NCBI GenBank assembly: GCA_025358705.1
Contig: JANYII010000229.1
Span: 1-52,545 of the forward strand
Reading direction: 5' to 3'
Length of the DNA: 52,545 bases
Source: Betaproteobacteria bacterium
Lineage (GTDB): Bacteria > Pseudomonadota > Gammaproteobacteria > Burkholderiales > SG8-39
Positions 26,955-50,347 of this stretch are shown in pieces. The notes beneath the pieces were generated by a model. That model saw nothing but the letters and a program-made list of their open reading frames with translations, was not told where the DNA came from and did not search any database. The first letter of the stretch is position 1; each line of letters opens with the position of its first letter. Made by a program: the position numbers and the translations under genes.

Positions 26955-26960
26955 GTCGTC

Positions 26961-30933: not shown

Positions 30934-30957
30934 TGCCTTTCCTCCTCCATTGCATGC

Positions 30958-31605: not shown

Positions 31606-31616
31606 GGCAGGCTCCG

Positions 31617-32720
31617 TCAGCCGCGCGACAATTCGACCAGCCGCGCGCTTATTTCGCGCAGTGGCAGTATGTCGTGCACCGCACCCGCGGCGATGGCCTG
31701 CTTCGGCATGCCAAATACGACGCAGCTCGCTTCATCCTGGGCGATGTTGTGCGCGCCCCTCTGGCGCAACTCGAGCATCGCCTGCGCGCCGTCGGCCCCC
31801 ATGCCCGACAGCATCACGCCGATGCATTTGCCGCCGGCAGTCTGGGCAGCGGAGCGAAATAGCGGATCCACGGACGGCCGATGGCGATTGACCGGAGGGC
31901 CATCCGAAAGGCGGATGGTAAGGCGGCCCTGCTTGCGCTCGACCAGCAGGTGCCAGTCGCCGGGTGCGATGTAGGCGCTGCCGCTGGCCAGAAACTCGCC
32001 ATCGTCCGCTTCCTTCACGTGAATGCGGCATTGGGTATCGAGGCGCTGCGCGAAGGTGCGCGTAAAACCGCCCGGCATGTGCTGCGCGATCAGGATCGGC
32101 GGCATGTCCTCCGGCAGCGGCATCAGCACTTCGCGCAACGCTTCGACGCCGCCCGTCGAGGCGCCGATCACGATGGTCTTGTCGCTGGCCGTTCCCACGC
32201 TGCGCGCAAGCGGCGGCGGGGCCGCGCCTCTCGCGATGGATGGCAACGCCGCACCGCGGGGCGGCAGCGTCCGGTCGCCGACGGGCGTGCGCGCGACCCG
32301 GCGCGTCACCCGCGCGGCCGCCGCGGCGCGCACCTTCTCGGCGACCTCCTCCGTATAGGCGGCCAGGCTCTCGGCATCGCCGGCAACCGGCTTGGCGACG
32401 AAATCCACGGCGCCCAGCTCCAGCGCCCGCATCGTCACTTCCGCGCCGCGCGCGGTCAGCGACGACACCATGACGACAGGCAGCGGCCGGATGCGCATCA
32501 GTTTTTCGAGGAACTGCAGCCCATCCATGCGCGGCATCTCGACATCGAGCGTCAGCACGTCCGGCGTGGAAGCCTTGAGCCGCTCGATCGCGGCGATCGG
32601 GTCGCTCGCGACCGCGATCACGGTCATGTCCGGCTGCGAATTGATGGCGCGGCTCAGCAGGCCTCGGACCACCGCCGAGTCGTCGACCACGAGGACGCGG
32701 ATCTTGCCGGCGCCGTTCAT
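31617..32720 (-). CDS. cheB: Chemotaxis response regulator protein-glutamate methylesterase
   Basis: 367 aa. REC ([13 protein letters not shown]...[12 protein letters not shown]) plus a methylesterase domain ([23 protein letters not shown]). Confidence 0.93.
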
Positions 32721-33328
32721 TTCCGGCCCTTCGAGAAAAGCTCGAAATCCCCCGACGCGGTGACCTGGTTCATGCGCTCGAGGTAGTTGTGCTCGCGTTG
32801 TCCAACGGTGTCGTTGCTCAACGAGCGCAGCTTCTTCACCAGCACCTTGCCGGTCCTGGGGAAGAAATAGACCTTGCGCGGCCAGACATCGTAGAGGTCC
32901 CTGGCAACGACCGGGATGCGTTCCTCGCGCAGGAAATCGAGCACGAACTCGCCGTTCTGGTCGCCGACGTTCAGCGTGTCCAGCCCGTCGAGAACCTTGC
33001 CTCCGCCGAACACCTTTGCGACCAGCTTGGCGCGCGCGGCGCCGAGCTTGACCACCTGGTTGATGAGCAGTTCCATCGCGTACACGCCGAGCCGGGCCGA
33101 CACCGACGCCACGTCATTCACCGCGCGCGACTTCCCCGGCAGCATGAAATGATTCATGCCGCCGACGCACGCCGAGGCGTCCCAGAGGCAGGCGGAGACG
33201 CAGGAACCGAGCACGGTCACGATCATCACGTCGCGCCGCGCGGCGTAGCACTGCCCCGGCAGGATCTTGATCGCTTCGAGTTGGAAGCGCGTGTCGAAAT
33301 AGCGGGCGAGGACCGGCGCGTCGGTCAT
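32717..33328 (-). CDS. cheD: Chemoreceptor glutamine deamidase
   Basis: 203 aa. [14 protein letters not shown]...[10 protein letters not shown] motif. 4-nt overlap with cheB. Confidence 0.9.
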
Positions 33329-33340
33329 CGCGTCAGGTTT

Positions 33341-34204
33341 CTACGGGGCGCGCGGCGAGTCGACGGCACGCCGTTCATAGGACGTCTTGCCGCAGTTGCG
33401 CAGCGCCGCGTGCCCAGTGGCGTAACTCTCGGAATGGCCGACGAACAACAATCCGCCTGGCCGCAGCACATCGATGAACCGGTCGAGGACCTGGCGCTGC
33501 GATTCCTTGGAGAAATAAATCATCACGTTGCGGCAAAAGATCACGTCGAAGCGCTCGCCCGAGGGCCAATCGTTTCCCTGCAGGTTGCATGGCGAAAATC
33601 TTACCATCGCCTGCAGTTCCGGCCGGACCATGATGCGCCCCTCGTTCGGCCCGACGCCCTTCAGAAAAAATCGCCGCAGGCGCTCCGGATTCATGTTGTC
33701 GACCGCCTCGAGCGCGTAGGATCCGCGCCGCGCGCGGCTCAATACCTCGGTGTCGATATCGGTGGCGATGATTTCCGCCGGGCATTCCACCTCGCGTAGC
33801 GCGATCGCCGCTGAATAGGGCTCTTCGCCGGTAGAACAGGCGCTGCTCCAGACCCGCAGCCGTCCGCCGCCCGGCGCGCTGCGGCGGCGCGCCGCCGCGT
33901 AGGTGGCCAGCATCTCGAAGTGATGGCCTTCGCGGAAAAAAGACGTCAGGTTGGTCGTCAGCGCATTGACGAACTGCCCGCGCTCCACGCCGTCCGGCTG
34001 CTCGACCAGGTCAAGGTACTCGCCGAAATTGCCGATCCCGGTGCTGCGCAGGCGCCGAGCCAGGCGGTTGTAGACCATGTTCTCCTTGTGCTCCGCAAGC
34101 GCAATGCCCGCGAGCTTCGCGATCAGTTCACGCACGCGCCGGAAGTCACCCGGAGAGAAGGGATATTCCCGCTGCGCGCTGAACGCGTTCGCCGCAGATT
34201 TCAT
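33341..34204 (-). CDS. cheR: Chemotaxis protein methyltransferase
   Basis: Track ORF 33341..34222 (GTG start). I prefer the ATG at 34204 (MKSAANAF...). MVYNRLARRLR, TSFFRE, VWSSACSTGEEPYS, IFCRNVMIYF are CheR motifs. Confidence 0.92.
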   Translation of the reverse strand: MKSAANAFSAQREYPFSPGDFRRVRELIAKLAGIALAEHKENMVYNRLARRLRSTGIGNFGEYLDLVEQPDGVERGQFVNALTTNLTSFFREGHHFEMLATYAAARRRSAPGGGRLRVWSSACSTGEEPYSAAIALREVECPAEIIATDIDTEVLSRARRGSYALEAVDNMNPERLRRFFLKGVGPNEGRIMVRPELQAMVRFSPCNLQGNDWPSGERFDVIFCRNVMIYFSKESQRQVLDRFIDVLRPGGLLFVGHSESYATGHAALRNCGKTSYERRAVDSPRAP

Positions 34205-34247
34205 GGATTTTTTCTCAGGCACGGTACTGGATGAAGCGTGAAGAAGG

Positions 34248-35852
34248 CTAAAACTCCTCCCAGCCCTCTTCGCCGGCCTTGCCGGCCTTGCCCTCGCTGC
34301 GCTTCTCTTCCCGCCCGCGCGGCAGCTCGGCCACCGGCGCCTTCGCCTCCTGCCGGGCCAGTGCGGTCGCCTTCGGTTTCTTCTGCGCAGCCGCGGTTGC
34401 CTGCACCGCCGCCGGCGCCGCCGCCCTCCCCGCCTCGGCCAGCTTGAAGCTGCCCACCGCGCGCGTCAGCGTCGTCGCCTGCTCCTCCAGCGACGCCGAG
34501 GCCGCCGTCGCCTCCTCCACCATCGCCGCGTTCTGCTGCGTCACCTTCTCCAGCTGCTGCACCGTGTCGCTCACCTGCGTCAGGCTCTGCGACTGCTCCT
34601 GCGAAGCCGCCGAAATCTCCGCAATCAGCCCGTTCACCCGTTTCACCGACTCCACGATCTCGACCATCGTCTTGCCCGCCTCCGCCACCTGCTTCGACCC
34701 GGCGTCGATGCGCCCTACCGAGTCCGAGATCAGCTGCCGGATTTCCTTCGCCGCCGCCGCCGAGCGCTGTGCCAGGCTCCTCACCTCCGAGGCCACCACC
34801 GCAAACCCCCGCCCCTGCTCCCCCGCCCTCGCCGCCTCCACCGCCGCGTTCAACGCCAATATGTTCGTCTGGAACGCAATCCCGTCGATCACCCCGATGA
34901 TGTCGGCGATCTTCTTCGACGACGCCGAGATCCCCGACATCGTGCTCACCACCGCCCCCACCGCGTCGCCCCCGCGTGCCGCCACGTCCGAGGCCGCCGA
35001 AGCGTGCTGGCTCGCCTTTTTCGCGTTCTCCGCGTTCTGCGACACCGTCGCGGTCATCTCCTCCATCGAGGCCGCCGTCTGCTCCAGGCTCGAGGCCTGC
35101 TCCTCCGTCCGGCTCGACAGGTCCGCGTGGCCTTGCGCAATCTCCGCGCTGGACACCTGGATCGATCCGGCAGCCTCGCGGATGTTTCCCACGATCGGCC
35201 GCAGTTGCTGCTGCATGCGCGCCAGCGCCGACATCAGGCTGGTTGAATCTCCGGCGGCAATCCTCGCGTTGCGGGTGAGGTCGCCCGAGGCAATGCCGTC
35301 GGCGAACCCGACCGCTTCTTCCGGTTCGGCGCCGATCGTCTTCATCACCTGCCGCGCCGACCACAGCAGCATGCCGGCGACCACCGCCAGAACGGCCAGC
35401 ATGCCTCCGCCGATCGCGGACAACACCAGGTCGCGCGCCACCATTGCGCCGTGGTCCCGGAATCCCGCCTTGAGACGGCCTACGGTCTTGCCGGAGGCAT
35501 CCTTCATCTCGCGTTCCACCAGCAGCAGACCCGAAACATCCGCCGGCGTCTTCGCCACATCGGAAGTCAGCGACTTGCCATCGGCGTCAAAAAACTCGGC
35601 GAAAGCCACCTGCTTGTCGCGCGAAATTTCCTTGACGAACGTGCCGAGCGCGGTCAAGTCATAGTTGGTTACGTAGGGCGTGCCCACGTGCGCGAACATT
35701 TCCACGGTGTGCTCGGCCTGCTGCGCGAAACCCTCGCTCAAATGGCGCACGACCATGCTCGCGCCGATCGCCGCCGCCGCCACCATGACGAGGATCGACA
35801 GCGACAACGCCGGTACGAGCAGCCGCGCGCGCAGCGATTTGAACTTGAGCAT
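34248..35852 (-). CDS. Methyl-accepting chemotaxis protein ending in the GWEEF pentapeptide
   Basis: The track ORF starts at TTG 35861. An ATG at 35852 ([12 protein letters not shown]...) is more likely. Two TM segments, HAMP, hairpin [40 protein letters not shown]. The last five residues are G-W-E-E-F (34265..34251). Confidence 0.92.
34501..34580. repeat. 80-nt near-identical segment shared by two MCP paralogues (copy 1)
   Basis: 34501..34580 and 37301..37380 differ at 4 of 80 positions in a by-eye alignment. Both encode the ...[15 protein letters not shown]... C-terminal helix of the MCP signalling domain. Confidence 0.85.
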
Positions 35853-35863
35853 CTGCTTCAAGC

Positions 35864-37012
35864 TCAGAGCTTGTCGACCTGGACGGCCTTGCCGCCGCGC
35901 ACGACGGTGAGGAAGACATCCTTCGCGCCCTGGTGGCTGGTCGCGGAGAATCCGACCTTCAGGCCGCCGACGTCGGTATTGAGTCCTTCCAGGGCACCGA
36001 TGAAGCTCGCGCGCGTCAGATTGGCGCCCGCCTTCTTCAATGCTTCGACCAGCACCGCGGCGTCGACATAGCCTTCCAGCGACGAGTAATTTACCGGGCC
36101 GCCCTTCATGTCCTGGTGGAACTGCTTGACCACCGGCACCCCGCTGTCCGGCGAAGGCATCACCTGGGTGATGTAAACGCCGTCGCCGTCGGCACCCGCT
36201 TCGCGGATGAAATCGGCCGTGCCAATGAACGAGACCGTCATGAAACGCGCCTTGATGCCCTGGGCCTTGGCCTTTTTCACCACGGCGGAAAGCGACGCGT
36301 AGGTGCCGACGAAGATCACCGCATCCGGCGCCGCGGCCTTGATCTTGGCCAGCCCTTCGTCCACGTCGAGCGTGTTGCGCTTGTAGCGCGCCTCTTCCGC
36401 AACTTTCATGTCGCGCTTGTGCAACGCGCGGTTGACGCCTGCCTTGCCGGCCTCGCCGAATGCGTCATCCTGGATGAAAAGTGCGATCTTCTTGGCCCCG
36501 GCGTCCTTGGTCAGGCGCTCGACCATGACCTCGGTCTCGTCGAAGTACGACGCGCGCACGTTGAACACCCACTTGTTGACCGGGTTGCGCAGGAATTCCG
36601 CGCCGGTAAAAGGAAACAGGTACGGCACGCTGGCACGCGCCGCAAGCGGCACCGCCGCCGCCGAGGTCGGAGTGCCGACATAGCCGAACAACGCGAACAC
36701 CTTGTCCTGCTCGATCAGCGCCTTGGTCACGGCCGCGGTCTTTTCCGGCTCGTAACCGTCATCCTTGCTGACGAGGACAACCTTGCGTCCATTGACGCCG
36801 CCTGCCGCGTTGATCCGGGCCAGGTACGCATCGGCGCCTGCTTTCAGGTTGACCCCGAGACCGGACGCCGGCCCGCTCAACGCGTTTGCCATGCCGATGT
36901 GTATTTCCTTGTCGGTAACACCATCTTCGGCGAGCGCCGGCATCCCGAGCGCTGCGAGAACCACGCCAGCGCAAAGCAGGTTACGTCGTGTTCTGTTCAG
37001 GTTCTTTGTCAT
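35864..37012 (-). CDS. Periplasmic solute-binding protein, LivJ/Peripla_BP_6-like (branched-chain amino acid / amide type)
   Basis: Track ORF 35864..37060 trimmed to ATG 37012 (GGAGGATCAC-ATG). Signal peptide [28 protein letters not shown]. The mature start [25 protein letters not shown] is typical of the family. Its stop lies 11 nt before the downstream MCP ATG. Confidence 0.85.
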
Positions 37013-37083
37013 GTGATCCTCCAGGTAGCAAGTATGCGCGGCCAAAGGCCACGCCGACAATCAAAGATTGTTCGAATCCGCGC

Positions 37084-38772
37084 CTAGAACTCTTCCCAGT
37101 CTTGCTGCGCCGCACCGCCGCCTGCGGCGATGCGCTTTCCCGCGGGCTTGACCGGCGCGAGCGCCGGCCGCGGGTCGGCCTTCTTGCGCAACGGTGTCAC
37201 GGTCGCGGTGCGCAATGCGGCCGGCTTCGCCTGTCCCGCCAGTTTGAATATGGCGACCGCCTGGATTAGCGTCGATGCCTGTTCTTCGAGCGAACCGGCC
37301 GCCGCCGTCGCTTCTTCCACCATCGCCGCGTTCTGCTGCGTCACCTTTTCCAGCTGCTGCACGGTGTCGCTCACCTGCGTGATGTTCTGCGATTGCTCCT
37401 GCGAGGCCATCGCAATCTCGGCGACCAGGCTGTTCACGCCCTTCACGGCAGCGACGACCTCGGCGATGGTGCTGCCGGCCTGGGCCACCTGCTTCGAACC
37501 GGCATCCACCCGGGCCACCGACTCGGAAATAAGCTGCCGGATTTCCTTCGCGGCGCCGGAGGAGCGCTGCGCCAGGGTCCGGACTTCGCTCGCCACCACG
37601 GCGAAACCGCGGCCCTGCTCGCCCGCCCGCGCGGCTTCCACCGCCGCGTTCAGCGCCAGGATGTTGGTCTGGAACGCAATACCGTCGATGACGCCGATGA
37701 TGTCGGCAATCTTCTTCGAGGATTCCGAAATCCCGGTCATCGTGCCCACGACCTCGCCGACCGCCTGGCCGCCGCGCGCCGCCACTTCGGAGGCGCCGGA
37801 CGCAAGCTGGCTCGCCTTCTTCGCGTTTTCAGCGTTCTGCAGGACGGTCGCCGTCATTTCCTCCATCGATGCCGCCGTTTCCTCCAGCGACGACGCCTGT
37901 TCTTCCGTGCGGCTGGAAAGATCAGTATGCCCCTGCGCGATTTCCTGCGCCGCGGTATTCACGGTATCCGCGGCTTGCCGGACATCACCGGCGATGCGCC
38001 GCAGGCCTTCCTGCATCGCGGCAAGCGCGGACACCAGTTCCGCCACCTCGTCGCGTCCGCGTACTGCCAGGTCCTGCGTGAGATCGCCCGCCGCAATGCG
38101 CTTCGCGCCCTCGTGCGCCTCGCCGATCGGAACGAGGATCGAGCGCGCGATGAGGATCGCCGCGCCCAGGGCGACAATCACCCCGATCACCGCCATCGCG
38201 ACCATGAGAATGCGCGTGCGCTGCACGGCGTCGTCCGCGAAAACCTTGGCGACCTGGAGCTGCTTTTGCTGATAGGCGACGAAGGTTCGCACCGCTCCGA
38301 GATAGCTCTCGGCCACCGGCACCAGGTTCTTGTTCAGGTCTTCGTTGACATTTTCGCCGGCGCTCTTGCGCTTGAGCATGACAGTGCGCAGTTCGCGGTA
38401 ATGCGCGCGGACTTCGCTGATACCTGCGAGCAGGCGCTTTTCGTCCTCGGATACCGCGACCGTCTCGATCTGCTTCTGCAGTTCGGAAATCCTGGCCGAC
38501 GTCGCATCCATGTCCTTCCTCAGGCCCTCCGCGACCAGGCCGTCCAGGATCTGCATCGAATTGTGCGTGCGCACCAGGTTTACCGCGATGTTCTTTTCCC
38601 ATTGCTCGGCGAGCACCAGCTTGGCGGCATCCTGCGTGACGATTCGGTCGATGATGGCGCCCAGCTCGCCAAGCCGCCATACGCCGGCCATGGCGCTTGC
38701 GCCCACCAGCAGCAGCACCGCGCAAAACCCGATCGCCAGCCGGGTGCCAATTTTCAGATTCACGAGTTTCAC
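37084..38772 (-). CDS. Methyl-accepting chemotaxis protein ending in the DWEEF pentapeptide
   Basis: 562 aa with a GTG start (AAGGGA upstream). Two TM segments, helical periplasmic domain, HAMP, and the same hairpin core as 34248..35852. The last five residues are D-W-E-E-F (37101..37087). Confidence 0.92.
37301..37380. repeat. 80-nt near-identical segment shared by two MCP paralogues (copy 2)
   Basis: See 34501..34580. Direct repeats about 2.8 kb apart on the same strand, flanking the solute-binding-protein gene. Confidence 0.85.
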
Positions 38773-38792
38773 GATCTATCCCTTGCGTATGT

Positions 38793-39308
38793 TCAATGTG
38801 TTGCCGCGTGCGCGGCGTCGCCGACCAGCTGCATGTCGCGGCTGGTCATCAGTTTCTCGATGTCCAGCAGGATCAGCATACGCTCCTCGAGCGTCCCGAG
38901 CCCAGTGATGAACTGCGTCTCCAGCGCCGCGCTGAACTCCGGCGCCGGCTTGATCTGCCCCGCCGAGAGCGACAGCACGTCCGACACCGCATCCACCACC
39001 GCCCCCACCACCCTCTTGGCCACGCTCAGGATGATCACCACCGTAAATTCGTCGTACTTCGCCTCGCCCAGGTTGAATTTCAGCCGCAGGTCCACGATCG
39101 GCACGATGATCCCCCTCAGGTTGATCACCCCCTTGATGAACGCCGGCGTATTGGCGATCGCCGTGGGCTGCTCCCAGCCACGGATCTCCTGCACCTTCAG
39201 GATCTCGATCCCATACTCCTCCGCGCCCAGCCGAAAACTCAGGAATTCGCGCAATTCCCCGGCACCCGATTGCGAATGCGTTGCTCCTCCTGCCATGCCG
39301 ACACTCAT
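38793..39308 (-). CDS. cheW: Chemotaxis coupling protein
   Basis: 171 aa. [23 protein letters not shown]...[14 protein letters not shown] is the CheW-like domain. Confidence 0.93.
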
Positions 39309-39332: not shown

Positions 39333-41543
39333 TCAAAGCCTGGCGCGCGCGCCCTTGCCAGCAAGCTGCACGATCTGCGCGAGGTCCAGGATCAACGCGA
39401 CACGCCCGTCGCCCATGATGGTGGCGCTCGAGACGCCCGGCATCCTGCGGAAATTGGCTTCCAGGCTCTTCACCACCACCTGCTGCTGGCCCAGCAGTTC
39501 GTCAACCAGCAGGGCCGCCTTGCCGCCCTCGGACTCGACGATCACGGCGATGCCGCCCTGCTCGGGCGCGGCGCCGTTGCCCTCGCGGAATACTTCGCTC
39601 AGTCGAACCACCGGCAGAAATTCGTCCCGAACGCGAAGAGTGTGGCCCTGGCCGGCAATGCCGGCGATATCCCCCGCCTGGATGCTCCGCGACTCGATCA
39701 CCGCCGACAGGGGCAGCACGTAAGTGGCCGGGCCGACCGCCACCGACATCGCCTCCATGATCGCGAGCGTCAGCGGCACGCTGACGGTGACCGTGGTGCC
39801 GGCACCTTCGCGCGAATGCAGTCCGACTTTTCCGCCGCCCAGCACCTGGATGTTCCGGCGCACCACGTCCATGCCGACGCCCCGGCCAGAAACATCCGTG
39901 ACTGTCTCGGCGGTGGAAAAGCCCGCCTCGAAAATGAGCTGCCATACCTCGTCGTCGTCCGCGTTCGGGTCGATGCGTATGCCGCGCTCGGCGGCGCGCT
40001 CCAGGATGCGCTTGCGATTCAGTCCCTTGCCGTCGTCGCGCACCTCGATCACGATGCTGCCGCCCTTCTGGCTCGCGCTCAGCCAGATCATTCCGCAACG
40101 CGGCTTGCCCGCGGCCTCACGCTCCGCCGGCGACTCGATGCCGTGGTCGATCGAATTGCGCACCAGATGCGTCAACGGGTCGGTGATCTTCTCGATCAGG
40201 CCGCGGTCGAACTCCGTCGTCTCGCCCGAAACCTTGAGTTCCACCTCCTTGCCGAAGCGCTGCGAGAGCTCGCGCGCCAGGCGCGGGAAGCGCGTGAAGA
40301 CGGTCGAGATCGGCACCATGCGGATCGACATCACCGCTTCCTGGAGGTTGCGCGCATGCCGCCCGAGATCGACAAGGCCAGTGGCGTAGCGCGAATCGCT
40401 CTCCTCCTGGCGCTGCTGCTGCGCAAGCATGGCCTCGGTAATCACCAGTTCGCCGACCAGGTTCACCAGCAGGTCGACTTTCTCGATGCTGACGCGGATC
40501 GAGGCCGCTTCGGCCAGCGCCTGCATCCCGCGTTCCGAGTCGCGCCGGCCGCGCCGCTCGGCGCCCGGCACGACGTCGCTCGCGCGCCTGCCGAACAAGT
40601 TCGGCTCGGCGGCGGGATCATCGGTCGCACGCCGTCCGGGGCCGCGCGGCTTGGCGTCCGATACGGCCTCTTGCGGCTCGCCCCCCCCGCGCCGAGCGCG
40701 AAATTTTTCCGGCGATACGAACGAATCAAACGAGGAATCGCCGGATTCCGCCGGCGGCGCAGCCGCGGGCGCGGCGACCGTCGCTTTCTGCTTCTTCTTC
40801 CATTCCGCCGGGTCGAAAAAAATCTCGCCGCCGTGGTCGTCGGCGACAATTGCCTTCGCCGGTGCCGCGGGTGCCGCCTTGTCGACGCGAATTGCGTCGG
40901 CCGGCACCACCAGCGCGAGCACGCTGCGCAGGTCGGCCTCGGCGCCGCTCAACTCGACCTCGAATCGGATCTCGCCGCCAGCGACGTTGCTCGTCGCGAC
41001 GGCTTCCACCTTGCCCATCTCGCCGAGGCCGGAGAGCATCAAGTCCAGTTCCGCGCTGTCGATCGGGGCCGCGAGCGGTCCCAGGCGCACGGCGTAGCGT
41101 CGCGGAGCCGAGGCCGGCCGGCCGCCCACGTCGCGTTCCATCAGCGCGCGCAATTCCTGTTCGATCGCGGCCGAGTCCGGCGCCTCCTGCACGGTGCCGC
41201 GCCGGAACGCGACCTGCATCTTGACCACGTCGCCGGCGCGCAGCATGAGATCGAGCGCTTCCTCGGTCAGCTGGCGCTCGCCCTTGCGCAGGTCGTCCAG
41301 CAGGTTCTCCAGGACGTGCGTGACCGAAGTGATCTCGCTGAATCCGAGCATGCCGCTGGTGCCCTTGATCGAGTGCGCGGCGCGGAATATCGCGTTCAGG
41401 TCCTCGGCGTCGGGCGCCGCCTGGTTCAGGCGCAGCAGGACGCTTTCGATGGCGGCGACGTGCTCGTCGGCCTCCTCGAAGAAAATGGCGCGGAAATCGG
41501 AGGTATCGCCGAACGCGCCGGAACCGGAACTGGATGAAGACAC
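39333..41543 (-). CDS. cheA: Chemotaxis histidine kinase
   Basis: 736 aa with a GTG start. P1 Hpt (FRAAHSIKGTSGMLGF), long Ala/Pro/Arg-rich linker, dimerisation domain plus HATPase (HLVRNSIDHGIE, DDGKGL, GRGVGMDVV), C-terminal CheW-like domain. No fused REC. Confidence 0.95.
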   Translation of the reverse strand: MSSSSSGSGAFGDTSDFRAIFFEEADEHVAAIESVLLRLNQAAPDAEDLNAIFRAAHSIKGTSGMLGFSEITSVTHVLENLLDDLRKGERQLTEEALDLMLRAGDVVKMQVAFRRGTVQEAPDSAAIEQELRALMERDVGGRPASAPRRYAVRLGPLAAPIDSAELDLMLSGLGEMGKVEAVATSNVAGGEIRFEVELSGAEADLRSVLALVVPADAIRVDKAAPAAPAKAIVADDHGGEIFFDPAEWKKKQKATVAAPAAAPPAESGDSSFDSFVSPEKFRARRGGGEPQEAVSDAKPRGPGRRATDDPAAEPNLFGRRASDVVPGAERRGRRDSERGMQALAEAASIRVSIEKVDLLVNLVGELVITEAMLAQQQRQEESDSRYATGLVDLGRHARNLQEAVMSIRMVPISTVFTRFPRLARELSQRFGKEVELKVSGETTEFDRGLIEKITDPLTHLVRNSIDHGIESPAEREAAGKPRCGMIWLSASQKGGSIVIEVRDDGKGLNRKRILERAAERGIRIDPNADDDEVWQLIFEAGFSTAETVTDVSGRGVGMDVVRRNIQVLGGGKVGLHSREGAGTTVTVSVPLTLAIMEAMSVAVGPATYVLPLSAVIESRSIQAGDIAGIAGQGHTLRVRDEFLPVVRLSEVFREGNGAAPEQGGIAVIVESEGGKAALLVDELLGQQQVVVKSLEANFRRMPGVSSATIMGDGRVALILDLAQIVQLAGKGARARL

Positions 41544-41565: not shown

Positions 41566-41931
41566 TCAGTCGATGAACTGGCGGACGATGGAGAGCATCT
41601 TTTCCGGATCGAACGGCTTGGCCATCCAGCCGGTCGCGCCGGCCTCGCGGCCCTTCGCCTTCAGCTCGGCGCCCGTTTCGGTCGACAGCACGATGATCGC
41701 GACGTTGTCGTACGCGGAGATGCCGCGCAGCAGGCGCACCAGTGTGACGCCGTCCGTGCCCGGCATGTTGTGATCGGTGACGACCAGGTCGAATACCTGC
41801 TTCTTCGCCTTCTCCAGCGCTTCGTCGCCGTCGCCGGCTTCCTCGACGCTGTAGCCCGCACCCTGCAGCACGGCAACGACCATCTTGCGCATCGAGCGCG
41901 TGTCATCGACAACCAGTATCGACTTTCCCAT
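41566..41931 (-). CDS. cheY: Single-domain chemotaxis response regulator
   Basis: 121 aa with RBS AAGAGGAA. ILVVDDTRSMRKM...VVTDHNMPGTDG...GWMAKPF. Confidence 0.9.
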   Translation of the reverse strand: MGKSILVVDDTRSMRKMVVAVLQGAGYSVEEAGDGDEALEKAKKQVFDLVVTDHNMPGTDGVTLVRLLRGISAYDNVAIIVLSTETGAELKAKGREAGATGWMAKPFDPEKMLSIVRQFID

Positions 41932-41963: not shown

Positions 41964-42842
41964 TCAGCCGCCGCCCGCGCGCGCCGACGGCACGAATTTG
42001 GCGATGACTTCGAGCAGGTGGTTCTCGTCGACCGGCTTGGTAAGGTATTCATCGCAACCTGCAAGCGAGCCGCGCAGCATGTCGAACGGCGAACTGCGGC
42101 TGGTCAGCATGACCACCGCGGTGCGCTTGACGGCCTGCTTGTTGCCCTTGATCAGCTTGCACACCTGGTAGCCGTCGATGCCGGGCAGCACGACATCGAG
42201 GAACACGCAGGTGTACTCGTTGGTGCCCGTGAGGCCGACCGCCTGTTCGCCGGTCTCCGCGAAATCGACATTGAAACCGTAGGGCGCGAGACGCGTTTCC
42301 ATGAATTTGCGCACGGTGGCGTTGTCATCCACCACCAGCACCGCATCCGCCGGGCGCCGCGGACGTGCCGCCGCCGGAGCAGGCCTGGCCGGGGCACCGG
42401 CCCCGGGATTGGTGCGCGCCGCCGCGCCGGGCGGCGGCGTACGCGAACCGGTGCCGGTAGAGGTCCGCTGCAATACCATGGTCTTCTCGTTCTCCGACGT
42501 GGCGGCAGGCGCGCCACCCTGGATCGCGTCGTCGAACGACTGCAGCACCCGTGCCCACTGCAACGGCCGCGACAGCAGCGCCAGCCCGGTGTTGCGGTCC
42601 GACGTGCCGATCAGCACCACCGGCGCCGCAACCCTGCCGCGGATCGCGGTGAATTCCGCCATCGCGGTATCGTTGTCCGCGTCCACCAGGTAAAGATCGG
42701 TGCGCTGCGCCGAGCTTGGCTCGCGCAGCAGGAAGCTCGGGTCGCGGCGTGCCGCCAGTCCGAAGATGCTGGACAGCATCAGGCGCTCGGTTTCGTTGAA
42801 CCCGATCACGTCCACCAGGTAGCTGGATTCTTCATTCGCCAT
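41964..42842 (-). CDS. Two-domain receiver protein: N-terminal receiver-like (probably degenerate) domain, Pro/Ala-rich linker, C-terminal canonical REC
   Basis: 292 aa. The C-terminal REC has VLVVDDNATVRKF...VFLDVVLPGIDG...EYLTKP. The N-terminal ~105 aa have the beta-alpha periodicity and an LYLVDAD strand but lack the N-terminal acidic pair. Confidence 0.75.
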   Translation of the reverse strand: MANEESSYLVDVIGFNETERLMLSSIFGLAARRDPSFLLREPSSAQRTDLYLVDADNDTAMAEFTAIRGRVAAPVVLIGTSDRNTGLALLSRPLQWARVLQSFDDAIQGGAPAATSENEKTMVLQRTSTGTGSRTPPPGAAARTNPGAGAPARPAPAAARPRRPADAVLVVDDNATVRKFMETRLAPYGFNVDFAETGEQAVGLTGTNEYTCVFLDVVLPGIDGYQVCKLIKGNKQAVKRTAVVMLTSRSSPFDMLRGSLAGCDEYLTKPVDENHLLEVIAKFVPSARAGGG

Positions 42843-42868: not shown

Positions 42869-44965
42869 TCATTGGGATGGTACCCCAAGCTTCATCTGGA
42901 TCGACTGGCTGGTCCAGATGCGGTCGATCTCCGCAAGCAGGGCGTCAGCATCCGGGAAGCGGTCCTTGGGGCGCTTGGCGAGCAGGCCGTCGATCAGCGG
43001 CTGGTAGTCCTCGAGTTCCGCAGGCAGCCTGGGGATCGGCGCGATGATGTGCTGCGACAGGATCTCGAGGATGGTCTCGCCGGTGAACACCCTTTTGCCG
43101 GTGAGCATTTCGTAGAAGATCACGCCCAGGCTGTACAGGTCGGCGCTCGGCCCCACTTCACCGGCCTGCGCCTGCTCGGGCGATATGTAGTGCGGCGTGC
43201 CGAGCACTTCCCCCTGGATCGTATGCCCGCTGGCGTGCTCGGTGCGCTTGGCTACGCCAAAATCGGTCAGCACCAGCACGCCTTCGGTGCGCAACATCAG
43301 GTTCGCGGGCTTGATGTCGCGATGCACGATGCCGCGCGAGTGGATCGCGGCCAGGCCGCTGGCCGCCTGCGACAGCAGCGACAGCGCCTGGCGCCGCGAC
43401 AATCCCCGGTCGATGACTTCGCGCAGGCTGCCGCCGGCCAGGTGCTCCATGGCGATATAGGCCATTTCGTCGCCGAAGCCCTGGTCGTAGATGCGCACCA
43501 CGTGCTCGTGATCGATCGCGGAGAGGATGGCGCATTCCTGGAAGAAGCGCTGCCAGAGTTCCTCGTCCTCCTTGCGGCGCACCTTGAGGATTTTCAGTAC
43601 CGCCTTGCGGCCGTGCACCTCGTCGTCGGCGAGGAACACCGTGGACATGCCGCCCTCGCCGATTTTCTCGAGCACCTTGTAGCCGCGGATGCGCAGTTCT
43701 TCCCCGCCGGGCGCCGCGGCGAAAGCCGCGGTCATGTCGCCGATCAGGTGCAGATCCTGGTCGAGCGCCGCCTTCGAGGCTTCTGCCGTGGCGCGCGCGT
43801 TCTCGATCAAGACCGCGCCCGCACCGGCGGGCAGCGTCATGTCGAGATCCGGCGCCGGCGGTTCCCGATCGGCATCCATGGCAATCACGTGGCCCACCGA
43901 TACGTGCGCGTCGCGGCCCAGCACCTCCACTTCGCGCATCTCGGCGACCACGAACCCCGGGCCCGCGGCTTCGATCGTCGTGCTGCTCGCGACAATCGGC
44001 CAGCGCAGTTCCTTGCATTTCGCTTCGAGCCGCGATGCCACATTGACCGTGTCGCCCACCGGCGTGAGGTCGCCCACGCCGCCCACCGCGAGGCGGAAGA
44101 ACATCACCTCCCCGGTGTGCACGCCCACGCCGACGTTGAACTCCGGCAACTCGGCCATTTCGTAGCGCGAATTCAGCCAGCCGCGGAACTCGCGCGCCAC
44201 CTTGAGGATGCCGAGCGCGGCGCGCAGCCCCGCCGCCGCATGCGCCTGGACTTCGTTCGGCGAGTCATAGCCGAATACCGCCATCATGCCGTCGCCCATG
44301 AACTTCATCACGCGCCCGCCATTGGCGAGAACCGGCTGGCAGGCTTCGCGCAGGTAGGCGGTCAGGAATTCGGCAACCGCCGTCGCCGGCAGGCGCTCCG
44401 AAATGCGGGTGAAGGAGCGGATATCGGTGAACAGCACCGTCTGCATGATCAGGCGGCCGGTCTGGTTCTTGAACGCCGCTTCGTCGGGCTGCTGCAGCTT
44501 GTCGCGCTCCGCGCGGTTCTTGTAGCGGTCGCGCAGCTCGCCGGTCTGCGACAGCACGTGGCTGGAGAAGATCTCGGTCAGCCGTGCGCGCTTCTCGAAC
44601 ACCTGGTTCACCGCATCGATCAGTTCCTGGCGCTTGAACGGCTTGGAGATGAAATCGTCGGCGCCCATCTGCATCGCCTTGCGCACATTTTCGCGCTCGT
44701 CGGCGGAAGTCAGCAGGATGAACGGCAGCGTCACGGTCGCCGGATCGGCGCGCACGCGCTGCAGGACCTCGAAGCCTTCCATGTCGGGCATGTTGACGTC
44801 GCACACCACCGCGTCCGGCTGGGCGGAATGCGACATTTCCAGCCCCGCGACGCCGCCCGAGGCCGTCACCACTTCGAAGCCCGACACCGTGAGCACGCGC
44901 GATACCGCGAGGAGAATGCTCTCGTCGTCGTCGATCAGCAGGATTTTCTTGCGGGATGCCGTCAT
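42869..44965 (-). CDS. REC - class III adenylate/guanylate cyclase - Hanks-type Ser/Thr protein kinase triple fusion
   Basis: 698 aa. REC: KILLIDDDESILL...VVCDVNMPDMEG...DFISKPF. Cyclase homology domain: VLFTDIRSFT, KFMGDGMMAVFG, VGVHTGEV, GDTVNVASRLE. Kinase: IGEGGMSTVF, AVLKILK, HRDIKPANLM, DFGVAK, GTPHYISPEQ. Confidence 0.9.
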   Translation of the reverse strand: MTASRKKILLIDDDESILLAVSRVLTVSGFEVVTASGGVAGLEMSHSAQPDAVVCDVNMPDMEGFEVLQRVRADPATVTLPFILLTSADERENVRKAMQMGADDFISKPFKRQELIDAVNQVFEKRARLTEIFSSHVLSQTGELRDRYKNRAERDKLQQPDEAAFKNQTGRLIMQTVLFTDIRSFTRISERLPATAVAEFLTAYLREACQPVLANGGRVMKFMGDGMMAVFGYDSPNEVQAHAAAGLRAALGILKVAREFRGWLNSRYEMAELPEFNVGVGVHTGEVMFFRLAVGGVGDLTPVGDTVNVASRLEAKCKELRWPIVASSTTIEAAGPGFVVAEMREVEVLGRDAHVSVGHVIAMDADREPPAPDLDMTLPAGAGAVLIENARATAEASKAALDQDLHLIGDMTAAFAAAPGGEELRIRGYKVLEKIGEGGMSTVFLADDEVHGRKAVLKILKVRRKEDEELWQRFFQECAILSAIDHEHVVRIYDQGFGDEMAYIAMEHLAGGSLREVIDRGLSRRQALSLLSQAASGLAAIHSRGIVHRDIKPANLMLRTEGVLVLTDFGVAKRTEHASGHTIQGEVLGTPHYISPEQAQAGEVGPSADLYSLGVIFYEMLTGKRVFTGETILEILSQHIIAPIPRLPAELEDYQPLIDGLLAKRPKDRFPDADALLAEIDRIWTSQSIQMKLGVPSQ

Positions 44966-44977
44966 GCGCGCTCGGGT

Positions 44978-46483
<1,506 letters not shown>

Positions 46484-46513: not shown

Positions 46514-46849
46514 TCAGTTGCTTGCATTCAACCATGACCCAAGATACCCCGTAATGCGCGCCGTCTCACGGTCGATGTCCGCGACCGCATTCGCGATCAA
46601 CCCGGCATCTCCCGTCCGTACTGCTTCCTCGGCCCGCTCGCAGGCTTCCGCGAGCGGCATTGCGCCGACCATCTGGCAGGCGCCCTTCAACCGATGCGCC
46701 CAGCGCAGGACGCCCTTGCTGTCGTTCCTGGAGAGCGCGACTCCCAGCGCGCTCGCGTCCCCGGGGCAGGAGACGCAGAACTGCCGCAATACTACTCCGA
46801 CCGCCTCCTGGTCATCTGACAGCAGCCTGTCGAGGACCGTGTGGTCCAT
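46514..46849 (-). CDS. Stand-alone histidine phosphotransfer (Hpt) domain protein
   Basis: Track ORF 46514..46957 trimmed to ATG 46849, because G/C content at third codon positions drops in the 46850..46957 extension. The AHRLKGACQMVGA motif (HxxKG) sits in a ~110-aa helical protein. Alternative starts at 46915 and 46957. Confidence 0.7.
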   Translation of the reverse strand: MDHTVLDRLLSDDQEAVGVVLRQFCVSCPGDASALGVALSRNDSKGVLRWAHRLKGACQMVGAMPLAEACERAEEAVRTGDAGLIANAVADIDRETARITGYLGSWLNASN

Positions 46850-47081
46850 GGGGCCGGCGTCGCCTTGCGCGCCAGCTCGCCGCTGCGCGCCTTCCCGATT
46901 CGATGTGCGAGGCATGTGAAAGGTCTCGATGTCCAGTGTCCGGTGTCTGCTCGGCACGCAACCATTGCGGCCAAAGAGCTATTCTGGCCGCGCGCCGGCC
47001 ATTTTCCAATGCGCGCGGACGCCACCGGTGCGTTGGCACAACCGGCCACGGTCGTGTAGGTAAATCCGCTACACTCGCGCC

Positions 47082-48299
47082 ATGAAGATCTTCGCGGTCG
47101 ACGACGATCCGATCACGCTCGCGCTCGTCGCGGAAGTGCTGCGCAGCGCCGGCCACGAGGTCACCACCTGCGGCTCCAGCCGCGACGCCCTGCGCGACAT
47201 CCCGCGCGCGCAGCCGGACTGCGTGATCAGCGACATCATGATGCCGGAGATGGATGGCTTCGAGCTGATACGCGAGCTGCGGCGGCGGCCGGAGCTCGCG
47301 GCACTGAAGATCGTCGTGCTGTCGACCAAGTCCTACGATTTCGACCGGCGCCGTGCCAAAGAACTGGGTGCCGACGGCTACCTCATCAAGCCGATCGAGC
47401 GCACCACCTTCGTCCAGTCGATCGTGGAAATCGTGTCCGAGGACGTACTCGTCACATACTGGGGCGTGCACGGCACGCTGCCGGTTCCCGGCGTGCGCAC
47501 GCTGCGCCGCGGCGGCAACACGCCCTGCGTCAGCGTCGAGGTGGGCGGCGAGCCGCTCTACGTGTTCGACTGCGGCTCGGGTATCAAGGGACTGTCCGAC
47601 CGGCTGCTCGCGATGCAGCAGGGGCGGATCACGGTGCGTATTTTCCTGTCGCACCCACACTGGGACCACATCAATACCATCCCCTTCTTCGCGCCGCTCT
47701 ACGCCCCGGGAAACCAGATCGAGATCCACGGCCCCTACCAGGGCGACCTGTCGATCGAGCAGGTGGTCAGCGCGCAGATGGAGAGCGTCTATTTCCCCGT
47801 GACCATCCGCGAATTCGGCGCGCATCTCGTATTCCGCGACCTGCGCGAGGAGAGCCTTTCTTTCGGCCCAGTGCGCATCGACACGATGCTGCTTAGCCAC
47901 CCCGGATACTGCCTTGGCTACCGCCTCACATGCCGCGGCCGCAAAGTTTGCTACATCACGGACAACGAACTGTTTCTGCGAGGCGATCCGCACCGGGACG
48001 AACACTACCTGGAGCGCCTCGCCGATTTCGTGCGCGGCGCCGACGTGCTGATCACCGACACGACCTATCGCGACCACGAGTACCCGGCCAAGATCGGCTG
48101 GGGCCACTCCTGCGTCAGCGAGGTGGCCGAACTCGCGGCACGGGCGCAGGTGAAGCGATTGCACCTGTTTCATCACGATCCGGACCAGTCGGACGACGAC
48201 ATCGACCTCAAGCTGGCCGAGACGCGTGCCGCGCTGGCGAAGCTCGATGCCAGCGTGGAATGCGACGCGCCCGCGGAAGGTACCGACCTGGTGCTGTAG
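47082..48299 (+). CDS. REC - metallo-beta-lactamase-fold hydrolase fusion
   Basis: 405 aa. REC: KIFAVDDDPITLAL...VISDIMMPEMDG...GYLIKP. MBL fold: FDCGSG, LSHPHWDHINT (HxHxDH), LLSHPG, ITDNE, HSCV..., LFHHDP. Confidence 0.85.
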   Translation: MKIFAVDDDPITLALVAEVLRSAGHEVTTCGSSRDALRDIPRAQPDCVISDIMMPEMDGFELIRELRRRPELAALKIVVLSTKSYDFDRRRAKELGADGYLIKPIERTTFVQSIVEIVSEDVLVTYWGVHGTLPVPGVRTLRRGGNTPCVSVEVGGEPLYVFDCGSGIKGLSDRLLAMQQGRITVRIFLSHPHWDHINTIPFFAPLYAPGNQIEIHGPYQGDLSIEQVVSAQMESVYFPVTIREFGAHLVFRDLREESLSFGPVRIDTMLLSHPGYCLGYRLTCRGRKVCYITDNELFLRGDPHRDEHYLERLADFVRGADVLITDTTYRDHEYPAKIGWGHSCVSEVAELAARAQVKRLHLFHHDPDQSDDDIDLKLAETRAALAKLDASVECDAPAEGTDLVL

Positions 48300-48475
48300 G
48301 AGTTACTGCGCCGCAGCGTAGGAAAACTCCCTACGCATGCACTGCCCGATTCCGTCTGTGGCCATCGACGCCGGGGGCATAACATCCGGCAGTGAAGAAT
48401 GCGCGCAACCCTGCCCGGCGTGGGGGTCCATTGGAGGAACAACCGCATGCCGCGGCACCCGGCGGCGAACCCCTC

Positions 48476-50347
48476 ATGGCCGAACGCCTGCTTGCGGCAT
48501 TCGAGCATCTGAGGGAATCCATCGTCCTTACCGACCCCGAGGACCGTTTTCTTCTCACCAACCGTGCGTTCCGGGAGCTAAACCGCAACGTCGCACATGC
48601 CATTCGGCCGGGCCTGAAATTCGAGGACTACATGCGCGCCGGCATCGCCGCGGGCAATTACCCGGATGCCATCGGCAGGGAAGAGGAATGGCTCGCGGCC
48701 CGGCTCGCGGAGCGGCGCAACCCGGGGAAACCCGTGGAGCGCCAGCGCAGCGGCGGACGCTGGTTCATGATCGACGACCGGCGGCTGCCCGACGGCTGCA
48801 CGATCCGGTTCGGCACCGAGATTACGGAGCGCAAGCGCGCCGAGGCTTCGTTGAACGAGCGCAATCGCGAGCTGCAGCTGGTGATCGACAGCGTCCCGGT
48901 GATGATCACGCGGCTCGACCGGGACGAGCGCTTCCTTTTCGCCAACCGTGCCTATACCAGGCTGATGGAGCAACCGATCGAGGATATTGTCGGCCGCCGC
49001 GTTGCGGACGTGATGCCACCCGGGATTTACGCGCAGATCAAGCCGGCGCTCGACCGCGCGCTGTCCGGCGATCCGGTGTCGATCGAACGGCTGCAGGTGC
49101 GCTCGAATGGCGAACTGGTCGAAGTCGAAGGACGCTACATTCCCGATGTCGACATAGCGGGCCGCGTCATCGGCATGTTCGCGGTGCACCGCGACGTCAC
49201 CGCCGAGCGGCGGGCGCGGGAGTCCCTGGCGAAGAGCGAAGCCCGTTTCCGCGGCCTCGCGGCCCTGTCCTCGGACTGGTTCTGGGAGCAGGACGCGCAG
49301 TTCCGCTACATCTACATCTCTGAAGACGCCGATGCCCGCGGCGCCATAGGCATGAAGCTGCGCGCGGGAAAAACGCGCTGGGAGTTGCCCTCGACCGGCG
49401 TGACTGAAGCACAGTGGGCAGCGCACCGGGCGCAACTCGAGGCACATCAGGTATTCCACGATTTCGAGGTCGGACGCCCTGGACCGAATGGCGAAACGAC
49501 CTGGGTCTCGGTGAGCGGAGAGCCGATATTCGACACCCAGGGCAATTTCACCGGATATCGCGGGATCACCCGCAACATGACCGAGGCAGTGCGCTCGCGC
49601 GCACGCATCGAGCGCATGAACGCCGAGCTAGAGGAGCGCGTGGAAACGCGCACCGCCGAACTGCGCGCGGCAATGAAGGAACTGGATGCCTTCACCTATT
49701 CGGTGTCGCATGACCTGCGCGCACCGATCGGGGCGGTCAGCGGTTTTGCGCACCTGCTGCGCAGCGCCGAGGCCGAGCGACTGAGCGAGGATGGCCAGCG
49801 CCTGCTCGGCTTCATCGAGCACAACGCGGAGCGCATGACCCGCCTGATCGAGGGCCTGCTGCGCTTCTCGCGGCTCGGGCGCAGCGAGTTGCGGCGCTCG
49901 CGCGTGTCGATGAACGGCCTGGTTGGAGAATCGCTGATGGATTTCGTGGATGAAGTCGCGCGCGCGAACATCAGCGCGGCGGCGATGCCCGACTGCAACG
50001 GCGATCCGGCACTGCTAAGCCAGGTCTGGTCCAACCTGCTGGGCAATGCCCTCAAATACTCGCGCGGCGCCAACCCGCCGCGCGTCGATGCCGGCTGGGA
50101 CGTGGAGCGCAATGCCTACTACGTGCGCGACAACGGCATCGGCTTCGACATGGCCTATTCCGGCAAGCTGTTCGGCGTCTTCGAGCGGCTGCACGCGGAA
50201 TCCGAATTCGAAGGCAGCGGCATCGGCCTCGCTATCGCGGAGCGCATCGTCCGGCTGCACGGCGGGGCCATCTGGGCCGACGCCGCGCCCGGCCACGGCG
50301 CCACCTTCTGGTTCACGGTGCCGTCGGCCGAAAAATGGGAGAATTGA
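48476..50347 (+). CDS. Cytoplasmic multi-PAS sensor histidine kinase (HisKA + HATPase_c)
   Basis: The track ORF starts at 48392. I prefer ATG 48476 (MAERLLAAFEHL...) because G/C content at third codon positions is low over 48392..48475. About three PAS-like repeats, H-box FTYSVSHDLRAPI, N-box LGNALKYS, G-boxes DNGIGF and GSGIGLAI. No TM segment. Confidence 0.85.
   Translation: MAERLLAAFEHLRESIVLTDPEDRFLLTNRAFRELNRNVAHAIRPGLKFEDYMRAGIAAGNYPDAIGREEEWLAARLAERRNPGKPVERQRSGGRWFMIDDRRLPDGCTIRFGTEITERKRAEASLNERNRELQLVIDSVPVMITRLDRDERFLFANRAYTRLMEQPIEDIVGRRVADVMPPGIYAQIKPALDRALSGDPVSIERLQVRSNGELVEVEGRYIPDVDIAGRVIGMFAVHRDVTAERRARESLAKSEARFRGLAALSSDWFWEQDAQFRYIYISEDADARGAIGMKLRAGKTRWELPSTGVTEAQWAAHRAQLEAHQVFHDFEVGRPGPNGETTWVSVSGEPIFDTQGNFTGYRGITRNMTEAVRSRARIERMNAELEERVETRTAELRAAMKELDAFTYSVSHDLRAPIGAVSGFAHLLRSAEAERLSEDGQRLLGFIEHNAERMTRLIEGLLRFSRLGRSELRRSRVSMNGLVGESLMDFVDEVARANISAAAMPDCNGDPALLSQVWSNLLGNALKYSRGANPPRVDAGWDVERNAYYVRDNGIGFDMAYSGKLFGVFERLHAESEFEGSGIGLAIAERIVRLHGGAIWADAAPGHGATFWFTVPSAEKWEN

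Follow-up and report, generated by a model that had tools for sequence, protein, structure and literature searches.

Two-component phosphorelays, cyclic nucleotides and eukaryote-like Ser/Thr kinases are usually described as separate systems in bacteria. Proteins joining a receiver (REC) domain to a mononucleotidyl cyclase are found among the multidomain regulators of non-motility (ACF) Che clusters (PMC3447774), so that, at census level, a Che pathway ending in a cyclase has a precedent. Kinase and class III cyclase folds share one polypeptide in the Pkn2-type proteins of M. xanthus (PMC1262709), in the TIGR03903 proteins and in the animal receptor guanylate cyclases, which carry a pseudokinase (PMC1262709). 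Here we analyse a stretch of 52,545 nucleotides from a Betaproteobacteria bacterium (assembly GCA_025358705.1, contig JANYII010000229.1; hereafter the window), in which a single gene on the minus strand, 42869..44965 with the stop codon included, encodes a 698-residue protein (hereafter the target) belonging to a family that joins REC, class III cyclase and Hanks-type Ser/Thr kinase in one polypeptide located at the output end of a chemotaxis-like receptor array. Like the REC-cyclase regulators, two of which (P0149 and P0163) are among the closest relatives of its cyclase domain, the target has a REC N-terminal to a class III cyclase, but it adds a C-terminal, apparently active Hanks kinase and is paired with a pseudo-cyclase-kinase gene. 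It differs from the kinase-cyclase fusions in its reversed order (cyclase, then kinase), in lacking a transmembrane segment and in having a REC as input. We favour, with moderate confidence, the reading that the target is a cytoplasmic response regulator with two enzymatic outputs, through which a chemosensory signal may leave in two chemical forms at once.

All three domains exceed the curated Pfam cut-offs, with Response_reg at residues 8-120 (2e-28), Guanylate_cyc (PF00211) at 176-353 (1e-12, 48.5 bits against a cut-off of 21.9) and Pkinase at 429-670 (8e-51), and no transmembrane segment is seen by hydropathy. The triple fusion had been proposed in an earlier sequence-only reading, and it stands, as does every motif quoted there, each of which lies at the position implied. 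The gene has a third-position GC of 0.88, typical of its neighbours, and its parts are as follows.

42869..44965, minus strand: whole gene, REC, class III cyclase and Hanks Ser/Thr kinase (open reading frame, Pfam, hydropathy, more than 100 relatives of the same architecture)
44606..44944, minus strand: receiver domain, residues 8-120, with D12/D13, phospho-acceptor D56 (44798..44800), T86 and K108 (Pfam, conservation)
44453..44605, minus strand: REC-cyclase linker, residues 121-171 (AlphaFold2, family alignment)
43877..44452, minus strand: class III (IIIb-like) nucleotide cyclase domain, residues 172-363, with the catalytic codons D181 (44423..44425), K221 (44303..44305), D225 (44291..44293), T301 (44063..44065), N308 (44042..44044) and R312 (44030..44032) (Pfam, CyaC/CyaB alignment, AlphaFold2, Foldseek, conservation)
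43685..43876, minus strand: cyclase-kinase linker, residues 364-427, family-specific, with a predicted long helix at 380-409 (AlphaFold2)
42890..43684, minus strand: PknB/StkP-like Ser/Thr kinase domain, residues 428-692, with codons K458 (43592..43594), HRD D550 (43316..43318), DFG D568 (43262..43264) and activation-loop T582 (43220..43222) (Pfam, sequence and Foldseek matches in the Protein Data Bank (PDB), conservation)

The full-length AlphaFold2 model (pLDDT 88, pTM 0.76), like the other structure predictions, is of a monomer only, and its low-confidence parts are the two linkers and the activation loop. Helix 5 of the REC extends to about residue 132 (helix 112-132, pLDDT 54-77), the remainder of this poorly conserved linker (mean identity 0.34) being of low confidence; the cyclase-kinase linker (mean identity 0.35) has no Pfam match.

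The cyclase motifs comprise D181 in FTDIRS, K221 and D225 in MKFMGD, and T301, N308 and R312 in DLTPVGDTVNVASRLE. In a PDB-wide phmmer search, the cyclase region best matches Spirulina CyaC (1wc0, 4.5e-17) and P. aeruginosa CyaB (3r5g, 1.2e-15), at E-values far beyond chance. The HMMER alignment to CyaC pairs FTD with FSD, KFMGD with KFVGD, and dlTpvGdtvNvasRle with dfTaiGpsvNiaaRlq, and CyaB aligns in the same columns. D181, K221, D225, T301, N308 and R312 occupy the six catalytic columns of CyaC, which we take to be D1017, K1057, D1061, T1139, N1146 and R1150 (1wc0 chain index plus 983, in agreement with the alignment). The two metal-binding Asp residues and the transition-state Asn/Arg pair (D181, D225, N308, R312) are in the canonical class III columns, and T301 and K221 are in the T1139 and K1057 columns, as in class IIIb; the Lys/Thr and Asn/Arg pairs, which had been placed by eye, are not misplaced.

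The predicted fold leads to the same assignment. Kinases filled the Foldseek list obtained with the full-length model, and the cyclase fold was therefore assessed on an AlphaFold2 model of the isolated domain (18-sequence alignment; pLDDT 90.9, pTM 0.89), which superposes on CyaC with a template-modelling (TM) score of 0.83-0.87 and a root-mean-square deviation (rmsd) of about 2.2 Å, and on CyaB with a TM score of 0.86-0.88 and an rmsd of 1.7 Å. Next in fold come Cya2 (2w01), a guanylate cyclase, and OaPAC and bPAC, both photoactivated adenylate cyclases, and the TM scores to 1wc0, 3r5g and 2w01 together span 0.83-0.88. In structure as in alignment, the superposition on CyaC and CyaB (TM 0.83-0.88) upholds the cyclase assignment of the sequence-only reading.

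The receiver (PF00072) carries an acidic pocket (DDD 12-14), the phospho-acceptor D56 in CDVNMP, T86 and K108. The Hanks-type kinase (PF00069) has its G-loop (GEGGMSTV, 436-443), the VAIK Lys K458 in AVLKILK, the helix-C Glu E477, HRDIKPAN (548-555) with N555, DFG (568-570) and an APE-like motif in GTPHYISPE (589-597). By sequence this kinase is closest to StkP (2e-47), PknA and PknB, and by fold to PknB (TM 0.85, Foldseek with the full-length model); the activation-loop T582 lies at most one position from the StkP phospho-Thr.

These features belong to a conserved family, mostly betaproteobacterial (Burkholderiales). More than 100 protein clusters with the same three Pfam domains were found at 46-96% identity in a search of 5.8 billion proteins. 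The relatives are almost all metagenomic, and the few names they bear are "protein kinase [Burkholderiales bacterium]" and JGI strings that either combine class 3 adenylate cyclase with CheY-like and Bud32 or read "PpkA". When 1.84 billion representatives were scanned by HMMER with the cyclase and its linker, 96 proteins matched at E <1e-30, about 18 of them with the triple-fusion layout as judged by length and match position; the five checked by Pfam were all confirmed (5/5). After the triple fusions, the nearest cyclases belong to two-domain proteins of the REC-cyclase and CHASE2-cyclase types. Conservation was counted in an alignment of 92 full-length members (46-95% identity to the target). 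In the receiver, where the signature residues are kept in 85-92 of the 92, D56 is found in 91, T86 in 90 and K108 in 92; in the cyclase, D181 is kept in 89, K221 in 87, D225 in 92, T301 in 89 (Ser in 2), N308 in 89 and R312 in 89; in the kinase, K458, E477, HRD, K552, N555, DFG, T582 and T590 are each invariant (92/92). Both enzymes of the target are probably active because their catalytic residues and motifs are conserved across the family, and the claim that the protein keeps the catalytic signatures of both was confirmed by the motif positions and by the 92 relatives.

Replacement of the substrate-binding Asp by Thr is the hallmark of class IIIb adenylate cyclases (PMC2613629). Cyclic AMP appears the likelier product than cyclic GMP, as had been proposed from the letters alone, because the Lys/Thr pair occupies the purine columns of CyaC and CyaB, the closest folds are those adenylate cyclases, and both residues are conserved (K221 87/92, T301 89/92); Cya2, a guanylate cyclase, is an equally close fold neighbour, and the preference for ATP is read from the Lys/Thr pair only. 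K221 varies to Arg, Met or Glu in five members, and in one of them (P0094) Glu replaces this purine-specifying Lys with T301 retained. Guanylate cyclases typically have Glu here, and P0094 may therefore have switched its nucleotide specificity. Stimulation by CO2/bicarbonate has been reported for all prokaryotic IIIb enzymes examined (PMC2613629), and bicarbonate/CO2 sensitivity would be an additional prediction for the target cyclase.

The kinase is the constant module of the family, which spans active/active, dead-cyclase, no-cyclase and dead-kinase states; judged by every sequence criterion, the target would be active/active. Three of the 92 members (P0115, P0117, P0120) have lost D181, N308 and R312 and keep a perfect kinase, and relatives of about 440 residues (L005, L006, L014) consist of REC and kinase without a cyclase. 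These variants, together with a tandem paralog described below, bear on the main rival to a dual output, in which the kinase is the real output and the cyclase-homology domain is mainly a receiver-controlled dimerisation scaffold, cAMP being incidental or minor. We consider this rival unlikely. The kinase is the best conserved domain (mean identity to the target 0.72, against 0.62 for the cyclase, 0.53 for the REC and about 0.34 for the linkers), none of the 92 members has lost its catalytic residues, and the paralog and the three decayed members retain the cyclase fold without its catalytic residues and with the kinase intact. However, the retention of all six cyclase residues in about 95% of members, over 46-95% identity, is hard to reconcile with a mere scaffold, and the reverse decay is found in a 36%-identical triple fusion from a Burkholderiales metagenome-assembled genome (MAG), where the cyclase is intact (FTD, KFIGD, FTAIGDTVNIASRLE) and the kinase is degenerate, with no HRD, no DFG and Lys replaced by Arg.

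9992..11974, plus strand of DASRIR010000206 (locus L004): triple fusion with intact cyclase and dead kinase

This protein is a bacterial counterpart of the pseudokinase-cyclase arrangement of animal receptor guanylate cyclases, with the domain order reversed. The pseudokinase state is mimicked only here, whereas in the target both domains look active.

The close relatives seen in this analysis all come from metagenomes or MAGs, and no cultured host was identified among them. An Alcanivorax locus (L050) was considered as a cultured relative and rejected, its kinase having a different C-terminal region and no triple fusion. The closest match in the genome collection (L001, JANLXF010000122.1, 92% identity) lies on a 2.2-kb contig binned in an 'Actinomycetes' MAG. 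The other full-length triple-fusion relatives are proteobacterial, mostly Betaproteobacteria/Burkholderiales, and the 'Actinomycetes' assignment is therefore probably a binning error.

Immediately upstream of the target gene lies a second kinase gene.

44978..46483, minus strand: tandem paralog, 501 aa, 12 nt upstream of the target gene, no REC (BLASTP, CyaC match, synteny)

The paralog aligns with target residues 176-680 at 34% identity over 519 aa (BLASTP, E 2e-76), spanning cyclase, linker and kinase. Its N-terminal half (about residues 1-200) matches CyaC at 5.5e-4 and has no Pfam cyclase match. Five of the six catalytic residues are replaced, with R11 at the D181 column, M51 at K221, R131 at T301, E138 at N308 and A142 at R312, and only D55 (D225) kept; the kinase motifs are intact (HRDLKPDN at 364, DFG at 384). 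Its orthologs at two related loci, L081 and L083 (61-66% identity), carry the same Arg at D181, Arg at T301 and Glu at N308. The comparison used three orthologs, since a homolog search with the pseudo-cyclase half gave mostly short fragments. On these shared replacements, the dead site of the paralog looks old and under selection, not freshly decayed.

The paralog may pair with the target protein. In a class III dimer, each site combines the two Asp of one subunit with the Lys, Thr/Asp, Asn and Arg of its partner, and a target-paralog heterodimer would therefore have no complete cyclase site. Two roles can be considered for the paralog, as a scaffold on which a second kinase dimerises or as a partner that poisons the cyclase; it probably uses the dead cyclase fold as a dimerisation module and may heterodimerise with the active protein. 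Two stronger readings of this pairing were weighed. In the first, the ratio of homodimer to heterodimer would split the array signal between cAMP and phosphorylation, the heterodimer, joined through the cyclase-homology domains, being kinase-active and making no cAMP; we hold this to be quite improbable, and if true, it would be a new output logic for Che-like pathways, linking His-Asp, cyclic-nucleotide and Hanks-kinase signalling in one complex. In the second, triple fusion and paralog would form an obligate heterodimer like mammalian C1/C2, asymmetric or silent, with the degenerate site as a regulatory pocket. The 12-nt spacing of the two genes, their pairing at L001, L081 and L083, and the non-random substitutions shared by the orthologs, which indicate selection on the degenerate site, speak for it. 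Yet the paralog keeps D55 alone, so that both composite sites would lack essential residues and make no cAMP, and triple fusions occur without the paralog at L003, L082, L004 and L002, so that the paralog is not required. We regard an obligate heterodimer as very improbable.

The target and its paralog are in a tightly packed minus-strand cluster, with gaps of 12 nt on the paralog side of the target gene and 26 nt on the other. In the direction of transcription, the order is Hpt (147 aa), kinase paralog (501), target (698), a REC protein (292), CheY (121), CheA (736), CheW (171), a methyl-accepting chemotaxis protein (MCP) of the 4HB-HAMP type (562), a periplasmic binding protein (398), a second MCP (537), CheR (293), CheD (203), CheB (367), a REC-ended protein (215) and a soluble protein with an MCP signalling domain (468). 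A complete Che core (CheA, CheW, MCP, CheR, CheB) is therefore combined with a multidomain REC protein in one cluster, as in an ACF-like pathway.

46514..46957, minus strand: stand-alone Hpt phosphotransfer protein, first gene of the cluster (Pfam Hpt, 5.6e-15)
41964..42842, minus strand: 292-aa protein with a Pro/Ala/Thr-rich linker and a normal C-terminal REC (Pfam)
41566..41931, minus strand: single-domain CheY (Pfam; 78-86% orthologs in L081 and L083)
39333..41543, minus strand: CheA with Hpt, dimerisation, HATPase and CheW domains, candidate phosphodonor (Pfam)
29527..39308, minus strand: rest of the operon, CheW, MCP, periplasmic binding protein, MCP, CheR, CheD, CheB, 215-aa REC protein and soluble MCP protein (Pfam, hydropathy)
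35864..37060, minus strand: periplasmic binding protein (Peripla_BP_6, 1e-68) between two membrane MCPs
30958..31605, minus strand: 215-aa protein with a C-terminal REC and an N-terminal 'DLDFT' motif
29527..30933, minus strand: 468-aa MCP-signalling-domain protein (6e-22), no hydrophobic segment, distal end of the operon
48392..50347, plus strand: PAS-PAS-HisKA-HATPase histidine kinase, alternative candidate phosphodonor, two genes away (Pfam)

The core order from paralog through CheB is repeated at L081 and L083, where the triple fusions are 61% and 57% identical to the target. Synteny is partial at L003 (40% identity), with the target gene followed by a 288-aa REC protein, CheY and then a CheW-domain protein, and at L001 (92% identity) the 3' end of the paralog is directly upstream of the target. 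Another clade has no che genes: at L082 (46%), a PAS-HisKA-HATPase gene overlaps the start of the triple-fusion gene, and at L004 and L002 a histidine kinase adjoins it; these kinases are related to the PAS histidine kinase of the window. The position of the Hpt gene is taken by a REC protein in L081 and L083. The binding protein between the MCPs suggests indirect ligand sensing; it was not seen at the corresponding position in L081 or L083. The 468-aa protein is probably a soluble chemoreceptor. A promoter/terminator scan of the operon gave nothing above shuffle expectation.

A cognate histidine kinase is near at hand in two forms, CheA within the operon and the PAS histidine kinase close by. 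CheA is probably the phosphodonor for D56 in the window, with the PAS histidine kinase as the alternative candidate. The best model for CheA is that of enteric CheA (NCBIfam PRK10547, 3e-186, below its cut-off). Related PAS histidine kinases, 35% identical to each other, lie one to three genes away in the window and L081. The stand-alone Hpt, the Hpt domain of CheA itself and at least six receiver domains nearby suggest a branched phosphorelay.

The 292-aa protein follows the target in 4/4 Che-linked loci examined, with 48-68% orthologs directly downstream in L003, L081 and L083, and may serve the kinase as a substrate or act as a phosphate sink. Pfam finds nothing in about the first 110 residues, which by eye resemble a degenerate receiver (LVDVIG..., LYLVDADND, VVLIGTSD). 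Orthologs of the 215-aa protein (41-42% identity; 7921..8514 in L081, 7880..8497 in L083) lie upstream of the paralog, but in the window the gene is downstream of CheB; the component is conserved and the operon rearranged. Such conserved REC neighbours with Ser/Thr/Pro-rich linkers beside the kinase genes (the 292-aa protein, and the 215-aa protein with its orthologs) speak for a reading in which the cyclase would be the real output and the kinase a feedback or adaptation device, acting on itself, the paralog or neighbouring REC proteins and not on separate downstream targets. The absence of an FHA protein or other obvious substrate gene in the open reading frames scanned is in keeping with this, and the pseudokinase of L004 shows that the protein can persist on its cyclase alone. 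On the other hand, the kinase is invariant and the cyclase decays more often, two active tandem kinase genes look excessive for simple feedback, and the present analysis identified no kinase substrate. We give this explanation little credence, and retain a dual output as the preferred reading.

From the domains, residue placement, conservation and context observed, we infer how the two outputs could be connected, namely the phosphotransfer partner, the dimer switch, the activities and the kinase substrates. Class III cyclases are active only when paired head to tail, PknB-type kinases are turned on when they dimerise and trans-autophosphorylate a Thr of the activation loop, and receivers commonly act via their α4-β5-α5 face. 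Since both enzyme types depend on dimerisation, one dimer switch could drive both outputs. A histidine kinase, in the window most likely CheA and in other clades the adjacent PAS histidine kinase, would phosphorylate D56 and thereby alter the dimer state of the target, and a single receiver-driven rearrangement of the dimer would control both activities. cAMP would be made at two symmetric Lys/Thr (class IIIb-type) active sites, and the kinase would autophosphorylate, probably on the invariant T582, and then phosphorylate its targets on Ser/Thr. The output of the chemosensory array would then be a second messenger together with protein phosphorylation, in place of motor control or in addition to it. 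The gating of both outputs by one receiver, as suggested by the sequence-only reading, seems reasonable on these grounds.

Several points weigh against this model. Conserved motifs by themselves are no proof of activity. The Pfam score of the cyclase, at 48.5 bits, is modest, and the HMMER alignment does not extend to the column of the triphosphate-binding Lys, presumably CyaC K1184 in the strand 7-8 hairpin; judged by eye, the target carries an Arg at that place (G350-R351, almost invariant across the family). Some lineages do without cyclase catalysis (3/92 members and the paralog), and cAMP may therefore be a secondary output. The idea of a dimer switch is derived from the general behaviour of REC domains, class III cyclases and PknB. 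At least five further receiver domains and a separate Hpt protein are encoded in the operon, so that transfer from CheA to D56 is only one possible wiring, and the PAS histidine kinase is two genes off on the other strand. Furthermore, no cAMP receptor (cyclic-nucleotide-binding domain), phosphatase or FHA protein was found among the open reading frames scanned in the window, and a cyclic-nucleotide-binding domain was seen about 6 kb upstream in L081 only.

The remaining features of the window lie outside the cluster. A divergently transcribed gene next to it encodes a REC joined to a metallo-beta-lactamase, which could be a receiver-controlled phosphodiesterase or nuclease.

47082..48299, plus strand: REC and RNase Z-like metallo-beta-lactamase protein

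It was considered as a cAMP phosphodiesterase partner and set aside as a lead, the catalytic domain being RNase Z-like and the PDB matches falling on the REC only; no match to the metallo-beta-lactamase part was found beside the triple-fusion homologs of L081 and L083. A second signalling cluster at 24139..28598 (plus strand) comprises a REC-HisKA_3-HATPase hybrid kinase, a LuxR-type response regulator, a small Cache-domain protein and a 4HB-HAMP MCP. The stretch 13425..23278, with a molybdopterin oxidoreductase (1036 aa), a 706-aa poly-ferredoxin, DUF3305, a MoaA-like radical SAM protein and FdhD, appears to be a module of the formate-dehydrogenase type with no relation to the triple fusion. 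At 8142..9062 (plus strand), the C-terminal domain of an Fe/Mn superoxide dismutase is, unusually, fused to a rhodanese domain; this gene adjoins a chromate transporter, and a Cu/Zn superoxide dismutase is at 10657..11181.

If both enzymes are active, the family would provide a compact model of one phosphorylation event branching into a diffusible and a protein-bound signal, and its active/active, dead-cyclase, dead-kinase and no-cyclase members would form a natural variant series for the origin of pseudoenzymes from dimeric enzymes. It would also supply a concrete output for a type of Che-like cluster whose function has been called unclear, the F7 stage 1-2 systems (PMC7184735). By gene order alone, the operon resembles the P. 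aeruginosa Che2/F7 stage 1-2 clusters (cheY, cheA, cheW, receptor, cheR, cheD, cheB; PMC7184735); their receptors are Aer2-like, whereas those here are 4HB-HAMP, and the stage 1 clusters carry anti-sigma antagonists and a serine phosphatase, not a cyclase-kinase (PMC7184735). Compared with the ACF clusters (PMC3447774), no TPR domain is detected in the CheR of this operon, which also contains CheD and a plain CheY.

At the level of the domains, the target cyclase shares with CyaC (1wc0) and CyaB (3r5g) the fold and the six catalytic residues, including Lys/Thr in register, but at 26-28% identity only; those proteins have no Ser/Thr kinase, and the target cyclase is placed between REC and kinase. 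CyaB carries a membrane sensor domain. The target kinase is 30-34% identical to PknB, StkP and PknA (TM 0.85), with all catalytic motifs and the activation-loop Thr, and differs in having no transmembrane helix or PASTA and in receiving its input from a receiver, not an extracellular sensor. Membership in described kinase families was rejected in three cases. The match to PASTA kinase PknB/Stk1 (NF033483) reaches 257.9 bits against a cut-off of 450 and covers the kinase part only, in a protein with neither PASTA nor transmembrane segment; that to TOMM kinase/cyclase (TIGR03903) reaches 163.4 bits against 705.75, its best stretch (model positions 3-242 of 1267) being the kinase. PpkA, the type VI secretion kinase, combines a kinase with a C-terminal von Willebrand A domain in a type VI secretion gene context; the target has no vWA domain in Pfam and a chemosensory context, and the JGI label PpkA on its relatives appears to be a best-hit transfer.

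A full-text literature search found no paper on a REC-cyclase-kinase protein, and annotation pipelines already list the three domains of the family. Each domain and each pairwise fusion is already known, as REC-cyclase, as kinase-cyclase in the opposite order (Pkn2, TIGR03903) and as REC-kinase. New relative to the searched literature are a triple fusion in which selection keeps both sites, its place within a Che operon, the pseudo-cyclase-kinase paralog conserved along with it and the series of decayed variants.

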